NCBI GenBank assembly: GCA_963793265.1
Contig: CAWBZI010000002.1
Span: forward strand, 768,001 to 832,000
Length of the DNA: 64,000 nt
Reading direction: 5' to 3'
Origin: an uncultured cyanobacterium
GTDB taxonomy: Bacteria; Cyanobacteriota; Cyanobacteriia; Phormidesmidales; Phormidesmidaceae
In this document: piece after piece, positions 940 through 62,910 of the stretch
Numbering within the stretch: the stretch's first letter is position 1
Layout of the letters: every line of letters begins with the position of its first letter
Notes under the pieces: model-generated
Told to the model about the DNA's origin: nothing
Database searches by the model: none
What the model saw: the letters and a program-made list of their open reading frames with translations, nothing else
Program-made: the position numbers and the translations under genes

Positions 940-2685
940 ATGGCTCAGTCCTCAAAATTCGTCCGACTCGCCTCTTATCTCAGGCCCCACTGGAAAGAAG
1001 TAAGCCTGGGCCTTATTGCCCTGCTAGTCGTCAACGCCATTGGCGTCACCATTCCGCTCACCATTGGTAGAGTTGTCGATGAGCTGACAGTCGCCTTCAC
1101 CACGGAACAGGTGATTCGCTCAGTCATACTGGTGCTGATTCTCGCCAGCATCATGTGGGTCATTCGCATGGCCTCGCGGATCTTTCTATTCGGCGCGGGT
1201 CGCAAAGTTGAATTCGACCTCAAGCAGCGTATCTTCGAGCACCTGTTGACGCTAGAACCTGCCTACTTCGCCCGCAATACCATTGGCGATCTCATCAACC
1301 GCGCCACCAGCGATGTAGACAATATCCGTCGCCTGCTCGGCTTTGCCATACTCAGCATGGCCAACACACTATTCGCCTATCTTCTAATTATCCCGGCGAT
1401 GGTCAATCTCAACGGCAGCGTGGCCTTCTTCTCTTTAGCGGTCTATCCCTTTATGTTTGCCGTTGTTGCTGTGTTTGGCGATCGCCTCCGCAAGCAGCAG
1501 CTAGACGTTCAACAAAAAATCTCTAGCCTCAGCGATCTCATCCAAGAAGACATGGGCGGCATCTCCCTCGTCAAAATCTACGCCCAAGAAGACAACGAAC
1601 GCCGCGCCTTCAGCCAGCGCAACCAAAGGCTTCTCACCGCCAATCTCGCCCTTGCCAAAACCCGCAACACCCTATTCCCCCTCCTCGGCGGCTTTGCCAG
1701 CCTCAGCCTGGTCATCGCCCTTGCCATCGGCTCCCAGGCCATCATCGCCGGACAGCTCAGCGCAGGTGATTTCGTCGCCATCATCCTCTTCATTCAGCAG
1801 CTCGTCTTTCCCACTGCGCTACTGGGCTTCACCATCACCGCCTACCAGCGCGGCGAAGTCAGCCTTGACCGCATTGAAACCATCTTCGACGCCCAACCCA
1901 AAATTCGAGACACCACCGACGCTATCTCTCTGCCTCATCCAGTCGGTCGCCTCGAAGCTCGCAACCTCGCCTTTACCTATCCAGGCTCCAACCGCCCTGC
2001 TATAGACCACGTTAATTTCACCATTGAGCCAGGGCAAACCGTCGCCGTTGTTGGCCCGATTGGCTCAGGCAAATCTACCTTAGCTATGGCGCTACCTCGT
2101 CTGTTGGAGATAGACCCAAACGAACTGTTTTTGGACGGGCATGATGTCACGAAAGTTGAGCTGAGTGATTTGAGAGGTGCGATCGCCTTCGTTCCCCAAG
2201 ACAGCTTCCTATTTAGCACCACCGTTAAAAACAACATCCGCTACGGCAAGCCACTATCTGAGCAAATCGACGTAGAACACGCTGCCAAAGAAGCCCAAAT
2301 CTACGACGAAGTACTCAACTTTCCCAGCCAGTTCAAAACCCTTGTAGGCGAACGCGGCATTACCCTTTCAGGCGGTCAACGTCAGCGCTCAGCCCTTTCT
2401 CGTGCGCTTTTAGTAGATGCCCCTATTTTGGTACTAGATGACGCCCTCTCTAGCGTGGACAATCAGACGGCAACTCAGATTTTAGACAATCTTTCTAGTG
2501 AAACTCAGAAGAAGACGGTTATCTTTGTTTCTCATCAGATGTCAGCAGCGGCTTCGTGCGATCGCATCCTGGTCATGAACGAAGGCCGCATTGCCCAGTC
2601 CGGCACCCACGATCAGCTCGTCACCCAGCCCGGCCTCTACCAAGATCTTTGGAACCAGCACAAGCTCAAAGAAGTTCTGCAATAA
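940..2685 (+). CDS. ABC transporter, fused permease/ATPase (exporter type)
   Basis: N-terminal TM helices; Walker A GPIGSGKS, signature LSGGQRQR, Walker B ILVLDD. Confidence 0.95.
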   Translation: MAQSSKFVRLASYLRPHWKEVSLGLIALLVVNAIGVTIPLTIGRVVDELTVAFTTEQVIRSVILVLILASIMWVIRMASRIFLFGAGRKVEFDLKQRIFEHLLTLEPAYFARNTIGDLINRATSDVDNIRRLLGFAILSMANTLFAYLLIIPAMVNLNGSVAFFSLAVYPFMFAVVAVFGDRLRKQQLDVQQKISSLSDLIQEDMGGISLVKIYAQEDNERRAFSQRNQRLLTANLALAKTRNTLFPLLGGFASLSLVIALAIGSQAIIAGQLSAGDFVAIILFIQQLVFPTALLGFTITAYQRGEVSLDRIETIFDAQPKIRDTTDAISLPHPVGRLEARNLAFTYPGSNRPAIDHVNFTIEPGQTVAVVGPIGSGKSTLAMALPRLLEIDPNELFLDGHDVTKVELSDLRGAIAFVPQDSFLFSTTVKNNIRYGKPLSEQIDVEHAAKEAQIYDEVLNFPSQFKTLVGERGITLSGGQRQRSALSRALLVDAPILVLDDALSSVDNQTATQILDNLSSETQKKTVIFVSHQMSAAASCDRILVMNEGRIAQSGTHDQLVTQPGLYQDLWNQHKLKEVLQ

Positions 2686-2805
2686 GACGGCATATCTTAC
2701 GTAAGTTGACGCATTTAAGCCAACTACTCGGCCAATTGGGAATTTTTAGCTTAAGGAAAATCCTTTAAGCGCCCATAGCCGAGAGGCTTATGGAAACCAC
2801 CAACT

Positions 2806-3402
2806 ATGTCAACTATTTTATTCTTTGTGCTGATCATCGTCGGCGTTGTTCTTTCATTAGCAGGCGGTATTATCGGCATTGCTCAGTCGTTCAGCGAAAG
2901 CCTCGTCTGGGGATTGCTCTACTTATTCGTGCCATTCGCGTCTCTTGTCTTCCTCATCAAGTTCTGGAAGCAGCGCGAATGGGTACGCAAAGCCGTCTAT
3001 GCGAGCATTGCAGGTACCGTAGCTATGTTTTTAAGCATACTCGTCGCCCCTCAAGACAGCGGCTTCTATGCAGAGCTTGAAGCACAAAATGCAAACTACG
3101 AAGCAGGTTTTGAAGACGACTACCTTTCAGTCACGACCGAAAGCGGCACCTCTGCAACCTACTCAACGCAACCTACAAACGGCAGCGAGTTCAGAGACGC
3201 CATCAACTTAGCAACCGCAGCCGCTAACCAAACTCAAACCGCTAAAACCAAAGAAGAATGGAGTGCAGTTGCCTTCACTTGGCAAAACTCCATAGAACTT
3301 CTCAAAGCTGTCCCCACTAACGATCCAAACTACGCTACAGCCCAAACTAAAATCAATAGTTACAGCGCGAACCTCGCCTACGCCCAGCAAAACGCAAAAT
3401 AA
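2806..3402 (+). CDS. Hypothetical membrane protein with C-terminal helical domain
   Basis: 198-aa ORF with about 3 TM segments, then an 'AINLA...EEW..VA..WQ.SIELLKAVP..DPNY..AQ.KI..Y' helical domain. Confidence 0.8.
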   Translation: MSTILFFVLIIVGVVLSLAGGIIGIAQSFSESLVWGLLYLFVPFASLVFLIKFWKQREWVRKAVYASIAGTVAMFLSILVAPQDSGFYAELEAQNANYEAGFEDDYLSVTTESGTSATYSTQPTNGSEFRDAINLATAAANQTQTAKTKEEWSAVAFTWQNSIELLKAVPTNDPNYATAQTKINSYSANLAYAQQNAK

Positions 3403-3423
3403 CCCGCCTGCCACACTACAAGC

Positions 3424-3463
3424 AAAAAGGCCCAGACTTTCGCACAAAAGCCTGGGCCTTTTT
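3424..3463. terminator. Bidirectional intrinsic terminator
   Basis: AAAAAGGCCCAGACTTT...AAAGCCTGGGCCTTTTT hairpin between convergent genes. Confidence 0.8.
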
Positions 3464-3477
3464 AGCGGTATCGCATC

Positions 3478-3756
3478 CTAGTCGTGAACGAGGATCAAAG
3501 AAAGTTCATTAGGAACATCAGCTACGATTCCATCAGTGATGCAATCAGCTAGGTATTCGTCTATTGTCTCTTGAAAATCCTGCTTGGTTTCAGCAGGTGT
3601 CTCACCTCTAAAGGTAATAGTATCTCGCTCTACATTGATCACTAGGCCATGAATTAAATTATCGTCAGCATCAACAACTAAACGGCCCACATAGCCTTTG
3701 TACTCAAATGTGTTAGGCGTATTGCAACATGTTTCGGCTTCGCTATCATTATTCAA
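3478..3756 (-). CDS. HicB-family antitoxin-like protein (orphan, N-terminal domain only)
   Basis: 'YKGYVG...D.DDNLIHG.V....DTITF.GET..E....FQE.ID.YL..C' matches the HicB N-terminal pattern. Confidence 0.75.
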   Translation of the reverse strand: MNNDSEAETCCNTPNTFEYKGYVGRLVVDADDNLIHGLVINVERDTITFRGETPAETKQDFQETIDEYLADCITDGIVADVPNELSLILVHD

Positions 3757-4787
3757 AGCTCTTGCTCCATTCTTTCCATCAAAAATTCAACGAGTAGAAC
3801 ATCACTGTCATAAAGAATAGCAATGCCAATGTCTTCTATGTAGCTTTGCATCTCCCATTTAGCCTTCACGTACTCTCCTTTTCTATGGTGGCGATAACCT
3901 TCATAGCTCGCCTTCCAAAGATTATCACCGCAGTTTGACCTGGTATAAGATGTAGGAATTTCATCCATCGTCTTCCGTTCTTCTGCCTCTTCCCAAAGCA
4001 CATTGCAAGCTTCTTCTAAAAGTCGATCAGCCTTGTCCGGCTCACCCGCTTCAGTCTGCACGATCCAGCGCAGCACATAATCGTTTGCTAAACCGCGTTC
4101 TCTTTCTTCATGCGAAGCTATAAGCAGCTCAACTGTTTCTAGAGCATCACTATAGTTACCATCGAACGTTTGAAACAGTGTGAGCACTCTATAATCTTCT
4201 CTGGGCGGTTGATATAGATCCGGGTTTCTAGCTTCAATAGAGCGCTTATTGCCTTCTATAATCCCAATGGCTATGCGAATGTCTTCGTAGGCTTGAGTCT
4301 TGTTCCCTAAGACCCAATTAATCATCGCTCGTTGGTAGGTAAACTCATGAAAATGTCCAGAGGCTAATCGATCATTCAACACATTAAGATAGTTCGGCAG
4401 CGAATAATATTCTTCCGCAGATAAACCACTTTCAAGATGAATGACGGTGCTCTCATCCTGCCAATTCCATTGCGCACCTGCCCCATATAGCCGCCCAACA
4501 CTAAAGAAAACATTAGAAAACGTCACTTCTCCCGTTCCATTTTCGCCCTCCACCTGTAGCGTGAACGATGAATCACATCCATCTCCGAAGGCACAGCTAC
4601 GGTCTTTCTCTCCAATCAGTTCAGTGCCTAGTATTTCACCCGTATCTTCTAAAATTATTTCGTTCTGCACAGCCCATTTCCTAGCAGCGCGCTCAACATT
4701 TGATCCTGCGATCAGAGCAATAGCCACAACACCAGCAACACCAGCCAAACAAATCCTGTATTTTTTCTGAAATAACGGTTTCGGCAT
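3753..4787 (-). CDS. Hypothetical membrane-anchored protein with TPR-like helical C-terminus
   Basis: Long ORF (track start 4862; ATG at 4787 more likely). N-terminal TM helix and TPR-like segments. Stop overlaps the next gene's start. Confidence 0.7.
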   Translation of the reverse strand: MPKPLFQKKYRICLAGVAGVVAIALIAGSNVERAARKWAVQNEIILEDTGEILGTELIGEKDRSCAFGDGCDSSFTLQVEGENGTGEVTFSNVFFSVGRLYGAGAQWNWQDESTVIHLESGLSAEEYYSLPNYLNVLNDRLASGHFHEFTYQRAMINWVLGNKTQAYEDIRIAIGIIEGNKRSIEARNPDLYQPPREDYRVLTLFQTFDGNYSDALETVELLIASHEERERGLANDYVLRWIVQTEAGEPDKADRLLEEACNVLWEEAEERKTMDEIPTSYTRSNCGDNLWKASYEGYRHHRKGEYVKAKWEMQSYIEDIGIAILYDSDVLLVEFLMERMEQEL

Positions 4788-4860
4788 TATCAAGCACAGT
4801 ACGTAGAAGATTATATACAAGTAGTCTGATTCACTACGGTACCTTCTACGCGAAAAAATC

Positions 4861-4899
4861 AATAAAGCCTGAACTTACTACATAAGTTCAGGCTTTATT
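4861..4899. terminator. Intrinsic terminator downstream of pilC
   Basis: Perfect 17-bp inverted repeat AATAAAGCCTGAACTTA / TAAGTTCAGGCTTTATT. Confidence 0.75.
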
Positions 4900-4940
4900 C
4901 AAAGATCTAATTTATTTAGCAGAATTAGCTGTTCGCTTGT

Positions 4941-6161
4941 CTATCCCAAGTGATCCATCACCGAGAACATCGGCAAATACATGGCCACCAGAATCGAACC
5001 CACCATGCCACCAAGCACCACAATCATAATCGGCTCCATAATACTCGTCAGAGCCTTCACCGCCTGCTCCACCTCATCCTCATAAAAATCCGCCACCTTC
5101 ATGAGCATCTGATCCAGCTCACCCGTTTCCTCACCAATGCTAATCATCTGAATCGCCATCACCGGAAATACCCCGTGCTCCTGCAAAGCCAAACTAATCA
5201 TTCCACCCGACTGAATCTCTGCCTGTGCCGCATTAATCGCATTCGCAATCACCTGATTACCCGACGTATCGCGCACAATCTCCAACGCCGTTAAAATCGG
5301 CACCCCCGAGCGAGACAGTGAGCCAAACGTCCGACAAAAACGCGCCGTTGCCGACTTTTGCGCCAAATCACCAAACAAAGGCATCTTCAAAAAGAAACCG
5401 TCCATTGTCACTCGGCCTACTGGCGTCTTGTAATACTGCTTGTACACAAACACCAGCACAGAGATAATCGCAATCAAACCCAACGTCAGATACCAGGTTC
5501 GCAGCATCTTACTAATCGCCATCAGCGCCCGCGTAAACAAAGGCAATGGCGCACCCAAGTCTTCAAAAATCTCCGCAAAAATTGGCAGCAGGAAAACTGT
5601 CATACCGACGAAAATAGTCACAGCCAAAAAGCCCACCGTTACCGGATAGGCCATTGCCGACTTAATTTGGTTCTGCAAGCGGTTCAGATCTTCTAGTAAC
5701 TTCGCCAAACGGTTAAGTACTTCGTCAAGCACACCACCGACCTCGCCCGCCTGAACCATGCTCACGTACAGGTTATCGAAGCACTTAGGATGCTTGCGCA
5801 TCGAGTCAGAAAGGTTAGTTCCCTGCTGAACGTCTGAATTGATGACCTGCAAAGCCTGCTTCATTTTAGGGTTAGGGCACTGGTCGGCCAAAATACCAAT
5901 ACCTCGAACCAGGGCCACACCCGAAGTCACCAAAGCCGCAAACTGACGAGAGAAAACGGCTTTGTCCTTTACCGTCACCTTCGCCATAGAAGTCGAAATA
6001 TCAGCCATATTAAAGCTGATACCGCGATTCTCTTTAATGTCTTGAACGTGCATACCCTGCTGCGACATCAGCGTACGTGCCTCAGAGACAGAAGGCGCTT
6101 CTATTTTCTGGCGGACAGCTTTACCAGTGGTATTTCGACCCGTAACAACGTAGGTAGGCAT
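4941..6161 (-). CDS. pilC: Type IV pilus inner-membrane platform protein PilC
   Basis: GspF/PilC motifs 'MVQAGEVGGVLDEVL', 'GEETGELDQML', 'EPIMIV'; sits in a pilB-pilT-pilC cluster. Confidence 0.95.
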   Translation of the reverse strand: MPTYVVTGRNTTGKAVRQKIEAPSVSEARTLMSQQGMHVQDIKENRGISFNMADISTSMAKVTVKDKAVFSRQFAALVTSGVALVRGIGILADQCPNPKMKQALQVINSDVQQGTNLSDSMRKHPKCFDNLYVSMVQAGEVGGVLDEVLNRLAKLLEDLNRLQNQIKSAMAYPVTVGFLAVTIFVGMTVFLLPIFAEIFEDLGAPLPLFTRALMAISKMLRTWYLTLGLIAIISVLVFVYKQYYKTPVGRVTMDGFFLKMPLFGDLAQKSATARFCRTFGSLSRSGVPILTALEIVRDTSGNQVIANAINAAQAEIQSGGMISLALQEHGVFPVMAIQMISIGEETGELDQMLMKVADFYEDEVEQAVKALTSIMEPIMIVVLGGMVGSILVAMYLPMFSVMDHLG

Positions 6162-6301
6162 CTATTCTCTCTTCTGCTCTGGTGAATTAAGGTGTAGCAA
6201 TAGTTTTATTGATAGCTATAGCGATAGCAGCGATGCCTCCTAACGCGCACCCATACATTCACGGATAAACAAGCTAGAGGGCATCTACTGTGTGGTTATA
6301 T

Positions 6302-7481: not shown

Positions 7482-9491
7482 CTAATCCTTGTATCGAGGT
7501 GTCAAACAATAAGGACAATCGATCCACTCGTGATGTAGCGCCGCATTACAGGTCGTACAGGATAGAACGCTCTTACGCTTAGCCTTTAGCTCAGCTTCTA
7601 GCCCCTTATCTGTAAAGGTTACGCGCTCTACTTCTTCAAGCGTGGTGTGCCCGGCCTTCACCAAGTTCAAGCTATAGGCCAGCAGCGTATGCATACCGTC
7701 TTCTACAGCCGCCTCCTTAATTTGCTCAGTCGGCGCATTGTCAGAAATCATCTGCTGCACCCTTTCGGTCACACGCATCACTTCATACACGCCAACTCGG
7801 CCTTTATACCCGCCGCCCTGACACTTTCCACAAAGCTCGCCCGACTCTCTGAGTTCAGCGATTTGCTCATTAGGCACCTTGTTAGCCTTATAAAAGGTCA
7901 TCTCAAAGTCACCTGAAGCCGTCATACCAAACCGCGCCAGTTCTTCGTGAGTCGGCGTATAGCCCACCCGACACTCACCGCACACCCGGCGCACCAGTCT
8001 TTGCGCCAGCACACCAATCAAAGAACTCGATACCTGGAAAGGCTCAACGCCCATCTCACCGAGTCTCGAAACCGCGCCTGCCGCGTCGTTAGTGTGCAGC
8101 GTCGTCAGTACGAGGTGCCCAGTTAAGGCAGCTTCAATTGCAGTTTTCGCCGTCTCAGGGTCGCGCGTCTCACCCACTAGGATCACGTCTGGATCTTGTC
8201 TTAAGAAAGCTCTCAAAATAGAGGCAAAGTTCATGCCCTTCTCTCGAATCACCTGCACCTGAGTAATCCCTGGCAGCGCGTACTCAATCGGGTCTTCTGC
8301 CGTGCTGATATTCACACCAGGGTCGTTACGCTCAGAAAGCACCGAATACAGCGTCGTTGTTTTACCCGAGCCTGTCGGCCCCGTTACCAAAATCAGGCCA
8401 AACGGCTTCTTAGCCATGTCCTGCACAATTTTCAGCGTCTCATCGTCGGTAATCAAAGCCCCTAAGCCCAACTGAGTCGCAGAGTTGTCCAAAATTCGCA
8501 GTACAACTTTTTCGCCATATCGACTCGGCAGCGTACTCACGCGAAAGTCTACCTTACGCTCCTGAAACACCCGGCGAATTCTGCCGTCTTGAGGCATCCG
8601 ACGCTCAGCAATATCCAGCTCAGAGATGATCTTAAAGCGAGCGGTTACCGCCGGAATAATCTTCTTCGGCAGCGCTGGAAAAGCCTCCTTCAAAACGCCG
8701 TCCTTACGAAAGCGAATTCGCAAAAACTCTTCTTGTGGCTCAACGTGGATGTCAGATACTTCTTCCTGTAGCGCCTTCACCAAGATCTTATTGACTAAGG
8801 CAATAACCGGAGCCGCGCCTGCATCTTGGAGTGCCGCACCCAAATCCGCATCTTCTTCAACGACATCTTCTAATCCATTGCCATCCAGATCGAGATCGTC
8901 TAGGTCGGTAGCTACATCGACCGCTTTAGCAGAATCGCGCTGCTTTTCTTTGGCCACCTGCTCGTCTAAATACTTCGCCATCAGGCGCTGATAATCTTCA
9001 ACGGTGATCACCATGCGCCGCAGCTTTATTTTCAGCGGTCGAAGAATGCGGTTCAAGTCATCTTGCGCCTCTAGGTTCTCTGGATCGACCATCGCCACCA
9101 GCACAGATTCAGTGCCGTCCTCTGTCGTCTTAGATAAAGGGACGAGGCGGTGGCGGCGACAAATATCTACTGATATCAAGCTGCCAATTAAGCCTGTTAC
9201 CTGCGAATCCGATATACTCTCAACTTCAGGATCAAGGGATTCGACGCCATAGAGAATTTTTAGCTCAAAGAGCTGCTGCTTTTTGTACTGACGCAAAAGC
9301 TCGGGTGAGAGCTGCTGCCCGGTCATAGACTCTAAAACGTCGGTTAAAGAACGACCTGTTTTGCGACTTTCGACCAGTGCTTGCTGCATTTGGCTGCCGT
9401 CTACAAAGCCTGCTTCGACGAGCTTGTTGCTAAAAGGCGAAAAGCTCTTTTGTAGGACAAGGGCCTTCCGCGTAGATGAAGAGTTTGTCAT
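7482..9491 (-). CDS. pilB: Type IV pilus assembly ATPase PilB
   Basis: GspE/PilB ATPase motifs, internal tetracysteine motif, cyanobacterial C-terminal CxxC...CPYC extension. Confidence 0.95.
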   Translation of the reverse strand: MTNSSSTRKALVLQKSFSPFSNKLVEAGFVDGSQMQQALVESRKTGRSLTDVLESMTGQQLSPELLRQYKKQQLFELKILYGVESLDPEVESISDSQVTGLIGSLISVDICRRHRLVPLSKTTEDGTESVLVAMVDPENLEAQDDLNRILRPLKIKLRRMVITVEDYQRLMAKYLDEQVAKEKQRDSAKAVDVATDLDDLDLDGNGLEDVVEEDADLGAALQDAGAAPVIALVNKILVKALQEEVSDIHVEPQEEFLRIRFRKDGVLKEAFPALPKKIIPAVTARFKIISELDIAERRMPQDGRIRRVFQERKVDFRVSTLPSRYGEKVVLRILDNSATQLGLGALITDDETLKIVQDMAKKPFGLILVTGPTGSGKTTTLYSVLSERNDPGVNISTAEDPIEYALPGITQVQVIREKGMNFASILRAFLRQDPDVILVGETRDPETAKTAIEAALTGHLVLTTLHTNDAAGAVSRLGEMGVEPFQVSSSLIGVLAQRLVRRVCGECRVGYTPTHEELARFGMTASGDFEMTFYKANKVPNEQIAELRESGELCGKCQGGGYKGRVGVYEVMRVTERVQQMISDNAPTEQIKEAAVEDGMHTLLAYSLNLVKAGHTTLEEVERVTFTDKGLEAELKAKRKSVLSCTTCNAALHHEWIDCPYCLTPRYKD

Positions 9492-14333: not shown

Positions 14334-15470
14334 TTTGAAGATTTATCGGTGGTTGCTGGGGCTTGGGTAGGAACGGTAGTGGCTATTCAGGCTAACTACT
14401 ATTCGGTGCAGCTAGATGAGGTGCCTGGGCTAGATAAGGTGAGGAAGCAGGCTGATTTGCCGGTTTTTTTGCTGTGTATTCGGCGAGGATTGCTCAAAAA
14501 GCTGGGCCAGCAGATTATGGTGGGCGATCGCGTGGCTGTAGAAGAACCCGACTGGCAGGGAATGAGGGGTGCGATCGCGACCGTCTACCCCCGTAAAACC
14601 TCCCTAGACCGCCCGCCCATCGCCAACGTAGACCAAATCCTTCTCGTATTCGCCCTGGCCGAACCTCAGCTAGATCCTCATCAGCTCAGCCGATTTCTAA
14701 TCAAGGCAGAATCTACCGGCATGGGCATCACGCTATGCCTCAATAAGCGCGATCTCATCGACGATAAAGCCGTCAGCTATTGGCAAAACAGAATTCAAGA
14801 ATGGGGCTACCAGGCTCTACTCGTCAGCATCCGCGACGATGACCAGCTCGAAACCGACCTCATCGCGGAGCTGCAAAGTAAAATCACAGTCGTCGCAGGC
14901 CCCTCTGGCGTAGGCAAATCCAGTCTTACTAACCGACTCATTCCCGATCAAGATCTTCGGGTTAATGCCGTTTCAGGAAAACTAGGCCGAGGCCGTCACA
15001 CCACTCGCCACGTAGAGCTATTTGAGCTTCCCAACGGCGGCTTTTTAGCAGACACCCCCGGCTTCAATCACCCTGACATCAATTGCTCTCCCGAAGAACT
15101 CAGTCAGTACTTCCCAGAAATTCGGCAGCGGCAGGCAGTAGCAAACTGTCAGTTCAACAACTGCCTGCATAGAGACGAGCCTGGCTGTATCGTACGCGGC
15201 AGTTGGGAAAGGTACGAACACTACCTCACGGTGCTAACAGAGGTGATTCAGCAGCAGCAAAACCTTTTGCATCAGCCGGATGCAGAGGCTACCGACAAAG
15301 TGAAGATGGTAGAAGACGGCAAGGTGCTGCGTGAGCCTAGATTGGAAGCTAAAAAATACCGCCGCACCTCACGAAAAACGCGCAATCAAGCTTTTCAAGA
15401 GCTGTGCATAGATCTTTCAGCCGTTGAGGATCTTGAAGACCTCGAAGATTTAGAGGATATTAGCCGGTAG
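14292..15470 (+). CDS. rsgA: Small ribosomal subunit biogenesis GTPase RsgA
   Basis: Circularly permuted GTPase: NKRD, GPSGVGKSS, GRHTT, DTPG, Zn motif CQFNNCLH..EPGC. Confidence 0.95.
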
Positions 15471-23178: not shown

Positions 23179-26100
23179 TTAGGCAGAAACGCTCGACAAA
23201 GCCGGTTTTTTCAAAGCGCCCTGCATTTGCCCAAGCCAGTCGATCAAGCTTTCAATTTGCTTGTCGGGGCTAAGTACGCCCAGTCCGCGAACGGTAACCT
23301 TGCCGGGTGCGTAGACGAAACGCGATCGCAAATGACTCGGCAGCTTTTCTTGCAGCAAATTCCAGGCAGGCTTCTCCATCGGCGTTTCCATAATCACATT
23401 CTGCTTGCCCTCTAGCTTAATTCGTGAAAAACCAAGCGGCTTAGCCATCTGCTTAATCTCAAGCACTTTCACAAGCTGACCCACCGCAGGCGGCAAAGTG
23501 CCGTAGCGGTCGTTCAAATCCGCCACAATTTCCATCAGTTCCCGCCGCGTACCCGCAGAGACTAAATCGCGGTAGATACTCATTTTCTGATCGACATCAG
23601 GAATGTAGTCGGCAGGAATAAAGGCCGTGACCTTAAGATCCACCTGAGTTTCATCGACCTGTGGAATTTCTTGACCGCGAATCTCTGCAATCGATTCTTC
23701 GAGCATGTCCATGTACAGATCGAAGCCGATCACTTCCATTTGCCCAGACTGCTGCGCACCGAGTAAGTTACCAATGCCGCGAATTTCCATATCTCGCATC
23801 GCAAGCTGATAGCCAGAGCCCAACTGAGTAAATTCTTGAATGGCACGAAGCCGCTTACGAGCCTTGTCTGAAAGCTTGTTCTGAGCGGGGAAAAGTAGCC
23901 AGGCGTGAGCTTGAATACCCGAACGACCCACGCGACCTCTAAGTTGATAGAGCTGAGAAAGCCCGAACTTATGAGCGTCTTCAATGATGATGGTGTTCAC
24001 TCTAGGAATATCGAGTCCTGACTCGATGATGGTAGTGCAAACCATCAGATCGGCCTCGCCACTGCCGAAGGTGAGCATGGTGGCTTCTAGTTCGCCTTCA
24101 GGCATTTGACCATGGGCGATCGCTAACCGAATCCCCGGCACCGCCTCCCGAATCCGCCCAGCCACTTCCTCAATGCCGTCCACCCGAGGCACCACATAGA
24201 ATATCTGCCCCCCGCGATCTAGCTCCTGACGAATCGCCGCTCTCACCTTCTCAGGATCATAGGGCGATAGGTGCGTCTTAATCGGACGGCGAGACGGCGG
24301 TGGTGTGGTAATCAGGCTCATTTCTCGTACACCTGAAAGCGCCATATAAAGCGTTCTAGGAATCGGCGTTGCACTCAGCGTCAGAACATCTACCTGAGCC
24401 TTCATCGCCTTAATTTTCTCCTTTTGGTTCACTCCAAACCGCTGCTCTTCATCCACCACCAGCAGGCCCAAATCCTTAAACTTGACGACCTTGCCGAGTA
24501 GCTGATGAGTACCAACAACCACGTCGAGTTCACCAGAAAGCAAACGCTTGAGAATGTCTTTGCGTTCAGAGGCGCTACGGAAGCGGTTGAGTAGCCCAAT
24601 TTGGATGGGATAAGGTGCGAAGCGTTCTTTGAGCGTGTGGTAGTGCTGCTGCGTCAAAATAGTCGTGGGCGCAAGTAAAGCAACCTGCTTGCCTGCGGTG
24701 ATTGCTTTGAAGATGGCACGCAGAGCAACTTCTGTTTTGCCAAAACCCACATCGCCACAGACTAAGCGATCCATCGGGCGATCGCTCTCCATATCTCGTT
24801 TCACATCCTGCGTCGCCTTGAGCTGATCTGGCGTGGGATCGTAAGGAAATGAATCCTCTAGCTCCTGCTGCCAGGGCATATCTTGGGGATAGGTAAAGCC
24901 TTCCATTTGCGATCGCTTAGCATACAGCTTCAGCAAATCGACCGCCACCTTCTGAATGGCCTTACGCGCCTTACCCTTGGTTTTCTCCCAAGTTTTGCCC
25001 GTCATCTTATTGAGCTGAGGCCGCTGATCTACCGACGTGCGATAGCGCGACAGCGAAGCCATCTGATCAACCGCCACCCGCAGCAAACCATCCGCGTACT
25101 GAATGACTAAGATATTCGCGCGTTTTGTTATCAACGGTGATGCTATCAAGCCGTAGAAACTGACCGATCCCGTGGTTACGATGAACTACATAGTCCTTCG
25201 GATTGAGCTTGTTGGGATCAACCTGTTTAGAGGCTGCGCGACGGCGTTTGCGAACGTAGCTAGGCGTCGCTAGCGTGTGCTGCCCAAAGAATTCGCGGTC
25301 AGTAACGACCACAATGCGAAAGGTCGGCAGGATGAATCCTTCAAGCTCAGCGAGTCCTGAATACTTGACGGCAATAGGAATCCGCTGATTTTGCAGCTTA
25401 TCAATCGCGGGATAGTCTTTGGGAGTTCGGAATAAACTGAGCCGGGCAGTCGTGCTCTTGCAGCAGGGCAACTGAGCGGGAGGGTTGAGCAGAAATGAGC
25501 CAGGGGGTGAACTTGCGATCGCGCTCTGCCCTCAAAATATCAGCCAGCTTCCCAAACTGATGCGGGATCGTCGGAATAGGCCGACTCGCCAAATTCAGCC
25601 CCACCCCTTCCTCTGCAATTTCTGAAAGTCCAACCTGCTGAAACAGGCTCAGCTCCTCAAGCACTTCAGCATAAGGCTTATGAATCCTAGGCAATCCCTG
25701 AGCAGGCAGCTTAACGTCAGGATGTTTTTCCAAAGCCTCCTGAGCCTCTGCCCAACGCTCCTCCATCGTCTCGATCCAGCGATCGGCATGAGCCTGGCAC
25801 TGCGCAGGCTCATCAATCGCAATCATTGTATCTTCAGGCAGATAGTCCAGCAGCGAGGCAGGCGACTCGAACGCCAATCCCGTGAACCGCCGGACGCCTT
25901 CTACCTGCTGACTGGTCGCGAAACTTTCTTGATCTTCTGGCACGAGAAGGTCTTCAAGCAGACCCTTTTTATCAAGTGCCTCAGAAATGATGGGGCTATA
26001 GTCGGTGGTTGTGAGTAAAAGGGTTTCGATTTTGTCGAGCGATCGCTGACTAGCCGGATCAAACTCCCTCAGCCGTTCCAGCTCATCCCCAAACAGTTCC

Positions 26101-26723
26101 AGCCGCACCGGCAGCTCAGCCGCCACAGGAAACACATCAATAATGTCTCCTCTCTGGCTCCACTGCCCCTCAGTCTCCACCGTCGCCACTTTCGCATAGC
26201 CCAGCTTAGCCAAACTAATCGAAAGATCCTTCAGGTTCAGCTCCATCCCCAGCGTAATTTCCAGGCAGTAAGGCCGAAACACCTCAACCGGCGGTAGATG
26301 CGGCTGCAACGCCCTTTCAGTAGCCACAATCGCCATCGACCCCAAATGCTTCGAGCCCGGCGGCATCTCACCGCTATACGCCTTGCCATTAATCAGATCT
26401 GAGAGCACCTGAAGCTGTCCCCAGGTCAACTCCGACTCCTGATCGAACCCGTCATAAGGAGAAGACTCCGAGGTGGGATAAAACGAAACCGTCTCCCAGC
26501 CCATCGCCTCTAGCTGCGCGGCCCACCGACCTGCTTCTTCTAGCGTGGCCGCGATCGCTAACATCGGTCGCTGCTGCGCCTGAGCCAAAGCAGACACCAC
26601 CAACCCTTTCGGCAGTCTAGGCACACCGTTAAGCTGTAGCTGCTGCTGCTTTCCGAGCTTATTTACCAGCTCTTGGCCAAGAGCCGTTCGGGCTAGCGCG
26701 CGCGTAATCGAAGAAAAGGCCAT
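23179..26723 (-). pseudogene. mfd: Transcription-repair coupling factor Mfd, split into three ORFs by two +1 insertions (probably artefacts)
   Basis: ORFs 25401-26723, 25067-25471 and 23179-25149 join into full-length Mfd (UvrB-like domain, [22 protein letters not shown]). Shifts at about 25424 and 25110. Confidence 0.9.
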
Positions 26724-53618: not shown

Positions 53619-55085
53619 TCACTTGTCCACCGGATTTTGAATTTTTGCTAGCAAATCGTAGAAAGGTTGCCAGTTGTCTTCTTCGGTAATAGGTGCCCAA
53701 ACAGCTTCGATTTGAGGGCGTAGGAGTACTGTTTTAGGATTGGTGGCGTGCAGGCACTTTTGGACTTCAGACATTTTGTCGGTGGGTAGGTGGCTGAGCG
53801 CTTTTTGGTAGTGCGATCGCCATCCTTTCAATAGCTCAGCCGCCACTGGATCAGACTTCTCAACCGCATTTGTCAAAATCAGCGCATCATCAGTCTGCCA
53901 CTCGGGCACGAACTGCTGAGTAAGGGCAGCGAAAAAATCGTGGTAGCCAACGCGAGTTTCTTCAAGCAGAGGTGATGGTTTCAGCAAGCAGGTCGCGTTT
54001 GAGATCGGCAGGTAGGGTGGTGGCAAGAGTAGAGGAGATGCCGAGCTTTTGGAGGGTGTGATCGCAAAACACCTCAGCATACTTAGGCTGATACTGCGCG
54101 AGTCCCGATTCCAGACCGTTAGCATCCACAATCCCAGCTAACGCAACGGCTAATTTCTCCAAATTCCAGTAGCAGGCTCCCGGCTGATTGCCATAGCAAT
54201 AGAGGCCCGAGTAGTCAAAATAAGCGGCTGTGAACTTAGGATCGTATTCGTCCATAAAGGCGAACGGCCCGTAGTCAAAGCTTTCGCCGGTAATCGACAT
54301 GTTGTCGGTGTTAAGTACCGCATGACAAAAGCCTACGCTCATCCACTGGGCAACTAAGGCAGCGAGTCGTTCGGCAAGCTCTGCAAACCAAAGCGCATAT
54401 CGTTCCTGCTCGTCTTCGACACTAAGCAAGTGCGGATAGTAAGTTTCAATGACGTGAGTCAGTAGCTTGCGAATAAGCTCGGGCTGCTTGAGGTAGCTCA
54501 ATCGCTCAAAGGTGCCAAAGCGAATGTGCGAATGGCTAAAGCGCACCATGACCGATGATCGCGTGGGTGACGGTTCATCGCCTCGGTGCAAATCTTCGCC
54601 GGTTTCGATCAGGCTAAGGGTGCGAGAGGTATTTACGCCAAGTGCATGAAGGGCTTCGGAGGCCAAAATCTCCCGTACGCCCCCTTTGAGCGTGAGGCGA
54701 CCGTCGCCGCCACGTGAGTAAGGCGTAGGGCCGGAGCCTTTGGTACCCAAGTCATAGAGTTTGCCATCGGTGCCGCGAACTTGGCCGTATAAAAAGCCGC
54801 GACCGTCGCCTAAAAATGGGTTGTAGCTGCGGAACTGGTAGCCGTGATAGCGGAGGGCTAGGAACTGATCGCGACCCGTTTTTTTGGGGAGAACTCACCG
54901 AAGGCTTGGGTGAAATCGCGATCGCTCACCTCATCCGCACTCAGCCCCATCTGCTGCAACACATCATCATTCCGAAACCGCAGCACATGCTTTGGAAACG
55001 TCGCAGGCGTCACCGCATCGTAGTAGTCATCGCCCAAATCAGCCAAAGCAGACTCATAAGGCAGACTCAAAAAAAGATTCGTCAT
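53619..55085 (-). pseudogene. selO: Protein adenylyltransferase SelO/YdiU, split by two frameshifts (probably artefacts)
   Basis: 'ALRYHGYQF', 'LGDGRG', '[15 protein letters not shown]', 'HAVLNTDN', 'DYGP'. Shifts at about 54879-54889 and 53970. ATG 55085. Confidence 0.88.
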
Positions 55086-55086
55086 C

Positions 55087-57477: not shown

Positions 57478-57491
57478 GTAGAATTAACTAC
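57478..57491. promoter_or_regulatory. NtcA-type box (GTA-N8-TAC)
   Basis: GTAGAATTAACTAC inside the extended palindrome AAAGTAG-N6-CTACTTT. A TAN3T (TATCGT) hexamer lies 23 nt away on the minus strand, towards rel. Confidence 0.55.
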
Positions 57492-58340: not shown

Positions 58341-58352
58341 GAAACCACTGCC

Positions 58353-58919
58353 GTGCACTGCCCCAAAGAAACCGCGATCGCGCTAACCCCCAATCAGCGC
58401 ACCAAAGATCTGCCGACTCACGGCTGCGCTAGCTGCGAAGGCCACTGGATTCCGGCTAAAAACTACCAGAGGTGGCAGGCGCTCAATGCTGGCTTAGATG
58501 CGATTCCTGAAAAAGTGCTGCCGCTATCGCTAGAAACAGATTTTAAGCCTGCGCCGCTAGATGGGCGGGCGGGGCTATGCCCGGAGTGTGGGACATATTT
58601 GAAGCGATCGCGGATTAATCTGCGCAGAGGCTCCTTTTATATAGAGCGGTGTCCTTTGTGCGATGGGCTGTGGTGCGATCGCGGTGAATGGCAGATATTT
58701 GAGGCGCTAGGCTTACACGTTCAAATACCAATCGTCTTTCAGCCTGAGTGGCAGTCGCAGGTAAAGGCAATGGAGCAGGTTGAGCGGCAGCGAATGGCGG
58801 TGGTGGAAAAGCTGGGGGATGATATTGCCAATCGTGTGTTTGAGCTATCTGATTTACTTAAGAACCATCCCCACGGCGATTTTGGGGTGGGCTATTTGAT
58901 GCGGAAGTTGAACGAGTAG
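58353..58919 (+). CDS. zf-TFIIB-like zinc-ribbon protein
   Basis: Repeated CxxC motifs 'CASCEGHW', 'CPECG', 'IERCPLCDGLWCDRGEW'. Confidence 0.8.
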   Translation: MHCPKETAIALTPNQRTKDLPTHGCASCEGHWIPAKNYQRWQALNAGLDAIPEKVLPLSLETDFKPAPLDGRAGLCPECGTYLKRSRINLRRGSFYIERCPLCDGLWCDRGEWQIFEALGLHVQIPIVFQPEWQSQVKAMEQVERQRMAVVEKLGDDIANRVFELSDLLKNHPHGDFGVGYLMRKLNE

Positions 58920-59094
58920 AAGCCCTCAGACTTGGCGACGCAGGATGTACGCGAGTTCGCAGAATTTGCGCTGCAGGTGTATGAAATGTCAGGGAAGCTG
59001 TTATGCGATCACGCCCAAAGCGACAACAACAAACAACTTTGCACTTGGGAAAAGAACAGCTCGCCAATCTAAATTCTCGATAAACTTATGCTTA

Positions 59095-59224
59095 CGGCCT
59101 GAAGTAAATCCTCTGTGGAGGGGCGCAGGGGTGGGTTTCGGTTTGTTGCGTAGGTTGCCGAACCCATCCCATCGCTCCTAATGCCTCTTGGGCCACCCTT
59201 CCAGAAGGGATTTACTTCGGGCTG
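59095..59224. repeat. ~130-bp imperfect palindromic element (MITE/REP-like)
   Basis: CGGCCTGAAGTAAATCC...GGATTTACTTCGGGCTG outer arms with inner GGGTGGGTTTCGG / CCGAACCCATCCC arms. Confidence 0.65.
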
Positions 59225-59276
59225 TGAAGTTAAACAGCGCTGATAGAAGTGCCCTATAGACAATTGCTTGCCCGAA

Positions 59277-59447
59277 CTAGCATCGATTTAGCTGCAAAAG
59301 TTCGGGCACCATCACTCTTAACTTTTGTGCCAGTAATTCTAACGTTTCAGCCTCAGTTGCTAAGCCAGGAACATCATCACTCGTCGCCACCCACACTTCA
59401 GCCTCATCATCCCAAAAAGCATCAATCTTGCAGGTTGTCTGACTCAT
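59277..59447 (-). CDS. DUF1902-family (HicB-like) protein, short and possibly truncated
   Basis: 'AFWDDEAEVWVATSDDVPGLATEAETLE.L..KL..MVPELL' pattern; 56 aa from ATG 59447. Confidence 0.8.
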   Translation of the reverse strand: MSQTTCKIDAFWDDEAEVWVATSDDVPGLATEAETLELLAQKLRVMVPELLQLNRC

Positions 59448-59520
59448 ACTGACATCTCCCTCATTCTTTGAGCCTACCTGAATAGTTCTCGCAATTGCCA
59501 AGGTTTCCTGTCAAAAGATG

Positions 59521-59558
59521 TTGACACCCGTAAAAATACTGATACGCTAGTTTTACGG
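59521..59558 (+). promoter_or_regulatory. Sigma70-like promoter with overlapping inverted repeat
   Basis: TTGACA (59521)-16 nt-TACGCT (59543); CCGTAAAA-N15-TTTTACGG at 59528-59558. Confidence 0.5.
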
Positions 59559-59599
59559 CTGTTGCCCTGTCTTAAACCCACTCGGCAATCGCTCTAACC

Positions 59600-59752
59600 G
59601 CTCAAAAATTTAGCAAGCCGCCCGTGTTAACTGCTACGAACAGCCAACACAGGCTCGCCCCTTAACTGCTCTCGGCAGTCAAGAGGTTATGGAATATGAT
59701 ATTCCATAGCCGCCCTGACTCATGACAAGTTGGGGCGGCTAAATTTTTGCGC
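59600..59752 (+). ncRNA. Candidate structured cis-regulatory leader (attenuator-like)
   Basis: Two repeated hairpins, a perfect palindrome, a terminator-like hairpin with T-tract, and an alternative long-range pairing of 59600-59623 with 59733-59752. Confidence 0.45.
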
Positions 59753-59778
59753 TTTCTTCAAACTCATCTCGGAGAAAC

Positions 59779-60129
59779 GTGAAAATGACCATTCGCCTCA
59801 TGAGACTGCCTGGCCTCGCGCTCAGGTTGCAAACCCATTCGACTACTTTTCCTGGATCCCTAACCTCAGACGCTATAGATCAAGACTTCCTGAATCCTTT
59901 AAGTGGGCCTACTCGTAAGCAAAATAAGGGCGATCGCACCTGCCAAAAAGAAGAACTGCGCCACATTCTACTCGGCTCGCCCGGCGCAATTCAGCAGGCC
60001 ATCCATCAGCTACACGTATTGAACTACGCAGAAACAGTACTGTGGAGCCCGACTACGGCGGTGGACGATCGCATCATCATCACGCCAGAGCAGGGAGAAG
60101 CCATGAGCTTATTGAGGCGATCGGTATAG
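59779..60129 (+). CDS. Small hypothetical protein ('LRHILLGSP..I..AIH.LH.LNYAE...WSP' type)
   Basis: 116-aa ORF with GGAG at 59771 before GTG 59779 / ATG 59785. The C-terminal half looks like a conserved cyanobacterial hypothetical. Confidence 0.7.
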   Translation: MKMTIRLMRLPGLALRLQTHSTTFPGSLTSDAIDQDFLNPLSGPTRKQNKGDRTCQKEELRHILLGSPGAIQQAIHQLHVLNYAETVLWSPTTAVDDRIIITPEQGEAMSLLRRSV

Positions 60130-60246
60130 TTTGACACCGGTTCAGGATAAGCGTTTCATGCTTACCGGCAGATCCTTGTATCTTAGGAGCAAGGCATCTG
60201 CGGGTGCCAGCCAAATGACTCTTAATGCGTAAACAATAAAAAGCCC

Positions 60247-61947
60247 ATGGCCGCTCTTCCCACTCCGCCCGGCGTTTCCAATCCCGTAGATACTGTAAAC
60301 GTGGCATCAAATCCACCACTATTCGCCGTCGAGAACTTTCGGGTGTCTTATACGGGCCAGTCGGTATGGGCGATTGACGATGTGAGCCTTTCCTTACGGG
60401 CAGGCGAACGGCTTGGCCTCGTAGGCGAATCGGGCTGCGGCAAAAGTACGCTCGGGCGAGCAGCGATGCGACTTATGCCGCCAGCCACCCGCATTGAAGG
60501 CAAAGCCACCTTTCAAGGCGACTCCATTCTAGATTTCTCGCCCGTAGAGCTGCGAAAGTTCCGGGGAGAAGCCGTCTCACTCGTCTTTCAAGATCCGATG
60601 ACGCGGCTCGATCCTCTAATGACGATTGGTGACCACTGCACAGAAACGCTGATGGCCCACCGGCCTGAGCTGAGCAAAAAGCAGGCCAAAGAAATTGCGG
60701 TAGCCACGCTCGAAACCGTCAAAATTCCTGCTGAGCGTTGGGCGCAATATCCCCACGAGTTTAGCGGCGGTATGCGGCAAAGAGTCGCGATCGCGCTAGC
60801 CCTCGTGCTCAATCCCAAACTCATCGTTGCCGACGAACCTACCACCAGCTTAGATGTCACCGTATCAGCGCAAATTTTAGAGCAGCTTACAGAGCTGTGT
60901 GCTGAGCGCAATATGGGTCTGATTTTGATTTCTCATGATTTGGCTTTAGTGGGGGAGTATTGCGATCGCATCGCTGTGATGTACCAAGGCAAACTCGTCG
61001 AAATCGGCCCCACCCAAGAAGTCTTTTACAACCCACAGCATCCCTACACCCAGTCGCTCCTCAAAGCCGCCAATCAGCTTCAGTCCGCCGGAGCCCAAAA
61101 CTCAGCGGGCGAGGCAATTAACGAAAACATCCCGATCCTTAGCCTGCAAAATCTCACCAAGCACTACACCTTAGAGCAAGGCATTCTCAGCAAGCTGCTC
61201 AGGCAAGATCCGCCCGAGGCGATCAAAGCCGTCGATGGTGTCTCACTCGATCTTTACCCCGGCGAAATTCTCGGCCTCGTAGGCGAATCCGGCTGCGGCA
61301 AAAGCACCCTCTCTCGCACCCTGCTGCGCATCGTCGAACCCACCTCCGGCAAAATCATATTCCAGGGCACCGACTTCACCGACCTATCGCGCACAGACTT
61401 ACAGGCCAAGCGTCGCGACATTCAAATGATCTTCCAAGATCCACACGCCTGCCTAAACCCAATGATGACTATCGGCAGGGGCATTGCCGATCCACTGTTA
61501 ATTCACGGGCTTGCCAGCCACGCCGAAGCTGAGAAAAAAGTGAACGCGATGCTAGAGCGCGTCGGCCTTACGCCCGTAGAAGACTACTATCATCGCTATC
61601 CCGGCGATATTTCGGGCGGACAGCAGCAAAGAGTTGCGATCGCCCGCGCCCTCATCACCCGGCCCAAGCTCGTAATCTGCGATGAGCCCGTCAGTATGCT
61701 AGACGCCAGCGTTCAGGCACAGGTGCTAGAGCTAATGCTCGATCTTAAAGATGAGCTGGAGCTGACGTATTTGTTTATTACGCATGATCTGTGGGTGGCG
61801 AAATATTTGTGCGATCGCATTGCTGTGATGAACGGCGGCAAACTCGTCGAAATCGGCTCCACCGAACAAATCTTCAGCGCCCCCGCCCACCCCTATACAA
61901 AGACACTGCTTCAAGCAGCTCCCCTGCTTGCAAAGGCCAACGGTTAA
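60247..61947 (+). CDS. Peptide/nickel-type ABC transporter ATP-binding protein (two fused NBDs)
   Basis: Two GESGCGKS Walker A motifs, '[12 protein letters not shown]', 'SGGQQQR', HPYT motifs. Confidence 0.93.
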
Positions 61948-61989
61948 GCAAGAGATAGGAGAAATGACTAACAAAAAGTAGGAGAGAAA

Positions 61990-62910
61990 ATGACTGCATT
62001 GATTGTTCATGGGGGCTGTGGGATTTGGCTTGATTATGCTGAGGAAGAGGCAATAGCTGGCTGTAGAGAAGCGGTTGTAGCAGGGCGGCAGGTTTTAGCA
62101 GCAGGTGGCACGGCTTTGGCAGGGGCGATCGCAGCCTGCACTGCCTTAGAAAACAACCCCCTCTACAACGCCGGTACCGGCAGCGTTCTCAACTACGATG
62201 GCAACGCCCAAATGGACGCAAGCCTAATGGAAGGGCATACGCTACGCTTCGGCGGGGTCGGTGCTATTGAGCGCGTCAAAAATCCTGTTCTCGTAGCCCA
62301 ACAAGTCATCGAACAAACCGACCACAATCTTTTAGTCGGGCCAGGTGCCACTGAATTCGCCCGCAAGGTTGGCTTTCCAGACTACGATCCGCGCACAAAC
62401 CAAAGAATCGCAGAACACCAGATGCTCAAGGCCAAAGTTCCCAAAGGCGAGCTTAAAACCAGCCGTTTCTCAACCGGCCATCCTGAACACGCCCACAGCT
62501 CAACTACTGGCACCGTTGGCGCAGTCGCTCTGGACTCGTACGGCAACTTAGCCGCCGTCACCACAACCGGCGGTATTTTGCTCAAACTCCCCGGACGAGT
62601 AGGCGATACAGCGCTACCCGGCGGCGGCACCTATGCTACAGACTACGGCGCGGCTTCTTCAACCGGCACAGGCGAATATGTCATGCGAATTCTTGGCACC
62701 CGGCAGGTGTGTGACCTGATCGCAGCAGGGCATTCCGCTCAAGTGGCAATAGACAAAACGTTAATGGAGATTAATACGCGCTTCAGCGCACAAACCGGGC
62801 TCATCGGCATTGATCGCGAAGGCAATGTTGGCCTGGCACATCTTACGCCTGAGATGCCTCACGCATTCTTTTCAGGCAGCGATGAGATCACGGCTCGGAT
62901 TCGCGTTTAA
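61990..62910 (+). CDS. iaaA: Isoaspartyl peptidase / L-asparaginase (Ntn hydrolase)
   Basis: 'IVHGG.G', 'LE..P.YNAG.G', autoproteolysis site 'GTVGAVA', 'GRVGDT', 'TGTGE'. Confidence 0.88.
   Translation: MTALIVHGGCGIWLDYAEEEAIAGCREAVVAGRQVLAAGGTALAGAIAACTALENNPLYNAGTGSVLNYDGNAQMDASLMEGHTLRFGGVGAIERVKNPVLVAQQVIEQTDHNLLVGPGATEFARKVGFPDYDPRTNQRIAEHQMLKAKVPKGELKTSRFSTGHPEHAHSSTTGTVGAVALDSYGNLAAVTTTGGILLKLPGRVGDTALPGGGTYATDYGAASSTGTGEYVMRILGTRQVCDLIAAGHSAQVAIDKTLMEINTRFSAQTGLIGIDREGNVGLAHLTPEMPHAFFSGSDEITARIRV

Follow-up and report, generated by a model that had tools for sequence, protein, structure and literature searches.

The closest described relative of the system reported here concerns the same DNA word, the palindromic octamer HIP1 (GCGATCGC), which has been unexplained for three decades. 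We analysed HIP1 in a 64,000-nucleotide stretch of an uncultured cyanobacterium of the Phormidesmidaceae (the window; positions 768,001 to 832,000 of contig CAWBZI010000002.1, assembly GCA_963793265.1) and in the 5.68-Mb, seven-contig genome holding it (G000). Here, DNA switches at HIP1 from G-rich on the 5' side to C-rich on the 3' side. Elhai has proposed mismatch repair directed by G-mC (mC, methylated cytosine) at HIP1, together with palindromic HIP1 extensions (PMC4390886). That model likewise has strand-directed repair at HIP1, with a range near 1 kb, and most of the extensions have C or A as their first added 3' base, the direction observed in G000. Unlike our finding, it concerns the making of HIP1 sites, describes no flank skew and takes sites matching seven of the eight bases as active. 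The same work places N4-methylcytosine (m4C) enzymes outside groups A and B, with none in S. elongatus. As for Dam/MutH-type repair, MutS1 and MutL are present in G000, mutH is reportedly absent from all surveyed cyanobacteria (PMC5101192), and GATC, CGATCG and 7-of-8 sites show no clear flip.

Other systems share single features with HIP1. Chi in Escherichia coli, with its GT-rich 'islands', is a recombination-linked octamer with G-rich DNA on one strand (PMC3763553), but Chi is not palindromic and the islands are ascribed to codon usage (as cited in PMC3763553). The HIP1 effect, in contrast, lies in synonymous positions, changes sign at the word whatever the gene strand, and tracks gain and loss of the site. 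The Chi/RecBCD/AddAB systems use a non-palindromic, oriented word, which HIP1 is not, and the HIP1 effect in PCC 7002 outlasts deletion of addAB. Human meiotic break hotspots show one mutation type on one side and its complement on the other, but the rate rises about 8-fold, the central 100 bp are symmetric and the asymmetry peaks at 700-800 bp (PMC7615360), whereas around HIP1 the rate is flat and the asymmetry is strongest at the site itself. Replication skew also switches from G-rich to C-rich, with the polarity of a terminus (PMC7198777); HIP1 differs in making thousands of switches about 800 bp apart, which are stronger than regional skew and additive to it. In pneumococcal transformation, whether a donor base survives depends on the type of mismatch, but neither a word nor strand polarity is involved, and the study found no role of repair in shaping large imports (PMC3375284). 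We found no description of a flank skew around HIP1 in the accessible literature (e.g., PMC5861425, PMC4390886, PMC13756078, PMC3497702), subscription papers and supplements lying outside the search, and the strand-polar footprint is apparently unpublished.

The footprint is real, large and widespread, and makes the function of HIP1 directly testable. It gives the word an output whose strand, length and spectrum can be measured.

A genome-wide switch in base composition at HIP1

HIP1 is present in about 6,884-6,888 copies in G000 (observed/expected 39), at 1.16-1.35 per kb on all seven contigs; its intergenic density (0.58-0.75 per kb) is about half the coding density (1.31 per kb). At the 5' edge of HIP1 GC skew lies between +0.3 and +0.5, and at the 3' edge between -0.3 and -0.5; it falls to ~0.15 at 30 bp and is near zero within a few hundred bp. 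Among 6,888 genomic sites 87% showed this flip, compared with 47% of 7,000 random positions. AT skew over all sites was ~-0.05 upstream and ~+0.07 downstream, and at fourfold degenerate (4-fold) sites 20-50 bp from HIP1 ln(C/G) was ~1.0 versus ~0.1 for ln(A/T). A reading of the window made from its sequence alone (the sequence-only reading) had described a change from G/T-rich to C/A-rich DNA centred on HIP1. With all sites averaged, the change of sign from G to C holds genome-wide, and the T/A part was overstated, being small.

The flip score of HIP1 reached z=88, whereas 121 other palindromic octamers scored on average -0.25 (sd 1.0, maximum +1.8); at least 20 isolated copies were required, and 134 of the 256 palindromic octamers were excluded for low counts. 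No clear flip was seen in G000 at 8,877 GATC-only and 483 CGATCG-only sites, nor at the 7-of-8 sites (373 and 358; GCGATCG-notC and notG-CGATCGC). The control words thus show no comparable effect and the flip is specific to HIP1. The Dam-type and CGATCG cores, noted in the sequence-only reading as methylase sites within HIP1, do not carry it alone.

HIP1 sites in the window

The window contains 61 copies of HIP1 (~0.95 per kb). At 54 of them a G-richer upstream flank gives way to a C-richer downstream flank, while the remaining 7 do not flip; all flanks pooled contain G922/C654 upstream and G577/C999 downstream. The features are as follows, with single-site counts taken over 50 nt on each side of HIP1.

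1478..62132, no strand: the set of 61 HIP1 sites, 54 of them at a G-rich to C-rich switch
2129..2236: HIP1 at 2179-2186 in an ABC transporter gene (+); flanks G18/C5 then G5/C17
14521..14628: HIP1 at 14571-14578 in rsgA (+ gene); flanks G22/C9 then G8/C25; the upstream flank contains another HIP1 (14524)
25465..25572: HIP1 at 25515-25522; flanks G22/C7 then G10/C17
53763..53870: HIP1 at 53813-53820 in the last piece of selO (- gene); + strand flanks G18/C7 then G7/C18
54868..54975: HIP1 at 54918-54925; flanks G15/C11 then G5/C22
58554..58732: two neighbouring HIP1 sites, 58604 and 58675; little flip on their 3' sides
62075..62182: HIP1 at 62125-62132; flanks G22/C9 then G9/C20

The polarity at 53813, in the minus-strand gene selO, is identical to that in plus-strand genes. 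Earlier hand counts were exact at this site, off by one base at 14571 (downstream G7/C25) and right in direction but within two bases at 2179 (G16/C7 then G6/C17); the gene names ABC transporter, rsgA and selO match Pfam. A weak or missing flip had been noted for 25515, which flips clearly, and for sites near 58613 and 58675, where the 3' sides indeed change little, the first of these sites starting at 58604. The upstream flank of 1478, called G/T-rich, is T-rich (T25/A3) without an excess of G (G11/C11).

Codon positions, contexts and range

Using a self-trained set of 4,839 genes, we found a 4-fold skew of +0.60 immediately 5' and -0.60 immediately 3' of HIP1, equal in plus- and minus-strand genes. 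Folded over strands, the C:G ratio at 4-fold sites reaches ~4.5:1 on the 3' side, while A and T shift little and GC rises slightly (0.56 to 0.60). At 2-fold sites C is favoured over T (~0.62 vs 0.50 far away) and A over G on the 3' side, and T over C and G over A on the 5' side. Codon positions 1 and 2 near HIP1 are shifted as well. The shift had one direction in all eight 4-fold families and in all 15 neighbour contexts; the gain of G on the 5' strand was +0.77 after G and +0.65 after T, compared with +0.5 after A or C, and the loss of C was nearly constant across contexts. The intergenic flip (+0.26 to +0.38) is roughly one third of the 4-fold effect, in keeping with the divergence of aligned intergenic DNA, ~0.4 of the 4-fold rate. 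Independence of gene strand, part of the original description, was therefore confirmed, and the effect survives control for amino acids in 4-fold families, in neighbour contexts and at aligned codons (see below). That it runs through synonymous positions is mainly correct, with the addition of positions 1 and 2. Analyses of codon usage, GC skew and selection in cyanobacteria are confounded by the HIP1 bias.

In 100-kb segments of G000 the flip is superimposed on the regional background skew, whichever sign this has. Split by replichore-like skew, it was kept in 18 leading-like and 36 lagging-like segments out of 61, the other 7 being unclassed with little background. Far from HIP1, the background 4-fold skew of G000 forms blocks from -0.30 to +0.32 with no single clean switch.

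The decay with distance was fitted to 439,839 G/C 4-fold sites, treated as independent. Two exponentials fitted best, one of 56 bp (amplitude 1.26) and one of ~990 bp (0.52), with a negative log-likelihood (nll) of 294088; a short exponential plus a linear sawtooth was nearly as good (294131). A single exponential and a pure sawtooth fitted less well than two length scales, the sawtooth worst, and two exponentials plus a sawtooth gave no better fit, probably being unconverged. Genome-wide, the footprints of near-neighbour HIP1 sites oppose each other and partly cancel. The profile decays smoothly to 1 kb, and only the codon period is visible in the first 60 positions; reading-frame preferences of HIP1 produce a period-3 pattern. 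At 2-10 bp from HIP1, 3'-side 4-fold sites of several genome samples are T-rich relative to A (log odds ratio, lnOR, -0.5 to -2), a short-range excess opposite to the longer-range trend that may reflect amino-acid context.

The skew follows gain and loss of the site

At aligned 4-fold positions of orthologues from the relatives G004, G007 and G009, the skew goes with the presence of HIP1. Beside 251 shared sites, G000 had a 3'-strand ln(C/G) of +1.07 and the relative one of +0.85. At 152 sites found only in G000 the values were +0.84 in G000 and +0.19 in the relative, and at 167 relative-only sites +0.63 in the relative and +0.14 in G000. Sites one base off in the partner (13 and 29) gave intermediate values. 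Against the more distant genus g16, ln(C/G) was +1.03 vs +0.13 at 160 sites. Because the skew is tied to the presence of HIP1 at aligned codons, protein context and a prior character of the locus are largely excluded, and we conclude that the HIP1 site itself causes the skew. Lineage-specific sites mostly lie at least 2 bases from the partner (152 vs 13 and 167 vs 29), so that one-off intermediates are scarce at the divergence between G000 and these relatives. Coding HIP1 sites, counted alone, were kept between genomes in 162/191 (G004-G009), 115/134 (G004-G007) and 55/57 cases (G288-G271).

One variant stands out. GTGATCGC, the C-to-T product at the reportedly methylated cytosine, occurs in 766 copies in G000 (observed/expected 3.5, vs 0.83-1.25 for the other 11 one-off variants) and is the commonest state in G000 where a relative has HIP1. 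It retains most of the flip on both sides (+0.58, +0.66), as expected of recently decayed HIP1 sites. These sequence counts point to decay of HIP1 through C-to-T change at that reportedly methylated position. An apparent one-sided effect at GTGATCGC was rejected as a reading-frame artefact, both sides being skewed. The variants GAGATCGC and GCAATCGC keep a small flip, and the other nine show little or none.

The possibility that codon or amino-acid context, gene orientation or the choice of examples creates the switch is refuted: frame preferences do give a period of 3 and single non-palindromic motifs can give false one-sided ratios, but the effect is present in all eight 4-fold families, all 15 contexts, genes of both strands and intergenic DNA, is absent at control words, and switches between lineages at the same aligned codons.

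Substitution rates beside HIP1

We compared 4-fold sites 3-40 bp from a conserved HIP1 (near) with far sites of the same genes in aligned pairs; polarisation on a three-genome tree was dropped, with only 65 three-way orthologues. Contributing orthologue pairs were 96/149 (G004-G009), 58/96 (G007-G004) and 45/117 (G288-G271). The near/far 4-fold distance was 0.99 (interval 0.85-1.19), 0.87 (0.73-1.08) and 1.09 (0.80-1.44), in this order. Nucleotide alignments gave 0.98 (0.87-1.09), 0.88 (0.75-1.01) and 1.08 (0.83-1.31), and without the conservation requirement the ratios were 1.05, 0.93 and 0.97 (overall 0.89-1.05). The intervals of the closest pair are wide because ~130 kb of 400 kb aligned.

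The predicted distance ratio is 0.71-0.75 for removal of errors, 1.19-1.43 for added mutation and 0.91-0.96 for a fixation bias or a strand-blind reallocation. Since synonymous divergence is approximately level near HIP1 (0.87-1.09), a fixation bias fits better than added mutagenesis. The error-removal range, 0.71-0.81 over distance and raw values, is excluded in one pair and not in another. Favoured changes were raised and their reverses lowered about as a fixation bias predicts: near/far ratios in G004-G009 (model in brackets) were 1.45 (1.3) for T>C, 0.83 (0.75) for C>T, 1.08 (1.3) for G>A, 0.76 (0.75) for A>G, 1.51 (1.6) for G>C and 0.56 (0.64) for C>G, with a modelled distance ratio of 0.94-0.96. 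Transversions are biased too and not transitions alone, though their counts are small.

The sequence-only reading had suggested that the process leaves a mutational footprint. Comparison with relatives in aligned pairs bore out the skew that follows the site but not a raised rate: synonymous divergence beside HIP1 is not elevated, and the composition expected from simple deamination is not seen.

Divergence at 2-fold sites was higher downstream than upstream of HIP1, in gene direction, in G004-G009, G007-G004, G007-G009 and G288-G271 (in the last, 0.088 vs 0.031), with small counts and pairs that are not independent.

Breadth across cyanobacteria

We surveyed 231 genomes of the class by counting exact matches to HIP1 with five frame-symmetric positions after it, all of them not-G or all of them not-C. 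With 63 HIP1-poor genomes excluded (pooled ratio 1.07, z=2.4), 142 of the 168 HIP1-rich genomes showed the same direction (z>3), 23 lay within 3 and 3 were reversed. By median, 24/28 families and 75/86 genera were positive, kin not being independent. Ratios ranged from 0.82 to 3.0 with a median of 1.23. G000, at 2.28, is among the strongest, so the form found in most cyanobacteria is much weaker. In G000, control words gave 0.94-1.11, and ratios within ~0.06 of 1 therefore mean little.

The genomes reversed by counts were G077, G237 and G254, for two of which samples of 60-80 kb were too small to confirm the reversal. The 11 genomes of genus g39, without exception, and the two of family f6 had ratios near 1; 80 kb of G116, from g39, gave a weak positive signal at 25-200 bp. 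The flip was seen at named loci in samples of Nostocales, Pseudanabaena, Microcoleaceae and Oscillatoriaceae, and none was seen in small samples of Synechocystis, Crocosphaera, Pleurocapsa and Coleofasciculus. The variant word GGGATCCC is abundant in 12 of the 33 genomes examined for it, and all 12, which belong to one family, lean the opposite way (0.82-0.96, pooled 0.91; five with z<-3). At three GGGATCCC loci the C/G, C/T and A/G odds were mostly reversed, most strongly in L120.

Two further loci are worth recording. L259, titled Candidatus Sericytochromatia (non-photosynthetic), has 13 HIP1 copies in 22 kb and a weak lean of the same sign (4-fold lnOR +0.38 +- 0.22). L063, titled Spirulina sp. 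(21.9 kb, 57% GC), has zero HIP1 copies and is close by protein identity to HIP1-rich Nodosilinea-like loci.

A strand-polar gene conversion as possible mechanism

A flip that is centred on HIP1, independent of strand, robust to amino-acid control and tied to the site is naturally read as a directional, strand-asymmetric process at HIP1. The sequence-only reading had suggested such a process; its anchoring at HIP1 is supported, a footprint of extra mutation is not. It is likely that the switch reflects a one-sided step of recombination or repair with HIP1 as its anchor. Any mechanism has to accommodate the need for all eight bases, a 3'-versus-5' asymmetry over ~55 bp and 1 kb, a preference for C over G without a raised substitution rate, and a size and sign that vary among lineages.

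We tentatively favour, at somewhat less than even confidence, that the switch is written by biased gene conversion, with HIP1 bounding heteroduplex tracts of homologous recombination. Both the origin in recombination and the mismatch rule are what we infer. HIP1 would mark one end of a heteroduplex tract; at a G-containing mismatch the base on the strand 5' of HIP1 would be kept and its partner replaced, and C-containing mismatches would be settled that way less often. Two geometries would give the same sign and are indistinguishable from the present data. The donor strand might end 3' at HIP1, as at Chi, with the stable G:T, G:G and G:A mismatches passing strand exchange more often than C:A, C:C and C:T. 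Alternatively, the donor strand might begin at HIP1, with MutS/MutL rejecting its G-containing mismatches more efficiently. The balance of tolerance and rejection would let amplitude and sign differ by lineage.

Recombination is favoured as the source of mismatches because a homologous HIP1 raises integration in PCC 7002 even when unmethylated (up to 7-fold, and more than 100-fold when methylated; bioRxiv 10.1101/2024.09.10.611283) and because the abundance of HIP1 goes with that of DNA-uptake genes (PMC13756078). According to DNA energy parameters, G-containing mismatches lie at ~2.9 kcal/mol and C-containing ones at 4.3-5.3. A one-parameter stability model (k=0.3) predicts mean shifts of +0.41 for G, -0.42 for C and +0.14 for T/A, compared with observed shifts of +0.61, -0.40 and +0.08, and a rate ratio of 0.89-0.96.

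Several points weigh against biased gene conversion. The stability model did not correlate significantly with the 15 contexts (r=0.12, -0.07, 0.32), and a strand-blind reallocation matches the rates equally (0.91-0.94). No heteroduplex, tract end or enzyme has been seen. Among 78 chosen genomes, mutS1 (78/78) and mutL (75/78) occur with and without skew, and their presence is unlinked to its amplitude. The persistence of the HIP1 effect in PCC 7002 after addAB deletion (bioRxiv 10.1101/2024.09.10.611283) speaks in the same direction, as does pneumococcal whole-genome transformation, in which mismatch repair had no influence on recombined segments (PMC3375284). The rates themselves are pairwise, under an assumption of reversibility, with two of the three pairs sharing G004, being about a third diverged at 4-fold sites and partly saturated; the sites were chosen beside conserved HIP1. 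Moreover, G007-G004 leans low (raw 0.86, interval 0.78-0.97; 0.87-0.93 by alignment) and allows plain error removal.

A wider form of biased gene conversion, which we hold more doubtful but worth stating, is that HIP1 serves as a palindromic Chi-like recombination end point across cyanobacteria and drives an undescribed strand-polar biased gene conversion. It would rewrite synonymous and some amino-acid-changing positions around thousands of sites per genome, and its sign would depend on how tolerance and repair of mismatches balance and would be reversed with GGGATCCC.

Other explanations

HIP1-directed excision repair, resembling Elhai's model, would nick at HIP1 and remove and resynthesise the strand 3' from the site. 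We consider it unlikely, if far from negligible, and its strand-blind form is the chief rival to biased gene conversion. It follows the same rule, in that the 3'-side base is replaced. In a strand-blind form, errors on the 5'-side strand are fixed and those on the 3' side erased with no net change of rate, which fits both composition and rates (0.91-0.94); if targeted to the new strand, it lowers the substitution rate. The ~1 kb component matches the range assumed by Elhai (PMC4390886), the near/far ratios lie slightly under 1, and G000 carries mutS1 and mutL. However, under pure error removal the distance ratio should be 0.71-0.75 and the raw ratio 0.77-0.81, values that fall short of the G004-G009 intervals (0.85-1.19 and 0.87-1.09), and Elhai's model makes 7-of-8 sites with one G-mC active, which show no clear flip. 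One 5-methylcytosine (m5C) methylase family, found in 66/231 genomes with a single-protein query, showed no link to amplitude (p=0.61; median ratio 1.21 in 64 genomes with it and 1.24 in 104 without). It was not found in the strongest genomes, G111, G168 and G066, m4C enzymes not having been searched. G000 has a conserved m5C methylase gene (contig C4, 631026-632333), which may or may not target HIP1. Biased gene conversion by recombination and strand-blind excision repair jointly hold about two thirds of our confidence.

Selection or molecular drive on the flanks, in which a HIP1-binding or RecA-loading step prefers a G-rich strand leading into the site, appears improbable. It is a fixation bias too and hence fits the rates, and the stronger gain of G after G or T (+0.77/+0.65) recalls the RecA preference for TGG repeats (PMC3763553). 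Against it, T is barely favoured over A (+0.03 to +0.13), the decay is smooth to 1 kb, and the amplitude ranges from none to threefold, with changes of sign among lineages.

Replication forks or Okazaki fragments that start, pause or end at HIP1 would orient the leading/lagging bias to each site, G-rich then C-rich being the sign of a terminus. This predicts an unchanged total rate and the usual direction of skew, the short exponential with sawtooth fits nearly as well (nll 294131 vs 294088), and many cyanobacteria have multiple origins and irregular GC skew (PMC7198777). Yet the local 4-fold skew reaches 0.6 against a regional ~0.1 (at most 0.3 per 100 kb) and comes on top of it without supplanting it, the bulk of the signal fades over ~55 bp, and the pure sawtooth was the worst fit. 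We regard local replication polarity as quite improbable.

Added mutagenesis, through single-strand exposure or error-prone patch synthesis beside HIP1 as around meiotic breaks, is already disfavoured, and we rate its chance as slight. At 2-fold sites the 5'-side strand does gain C>T-like and A>G-like changes, as deamination of exposed DNA would produce, and conditioning on conserved HIP1 could mask some excess divergence. Its prediction of 1.19-1.43, however, compares with 0.87-1.09 observed, or 0.89-1.05 without the conservation requirement. Deamination alone predicts frequencies on the 3' strand of 0.36 for A and 0.11 for T (~0.21 and ~0.19 observed), and loss of C alone predicts a GC of 0.45 (0.59-0.60 observed). 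The loss of C also depends little on context, unlike ultraviolet or deaminase signatures.

Further observations in the window

No Rfam families were found in the window. The selO gene (53619-55085, minus strand) consists of three pieces that differ in reading frame (Pfam positions 2-65, 107-355 and 358-466) and is either a pseudogene or split by assembly indels; several methylase matches in G000 also carry stops or splits. An Mfd-type open reading frame (ORF) with DEAD, Helicase_C and TRCF domains (23179-25134, minus strand) has 651 aa as called and an adjacent ORF at 25401-26723; full-length Mfd has about 1,150 aa.

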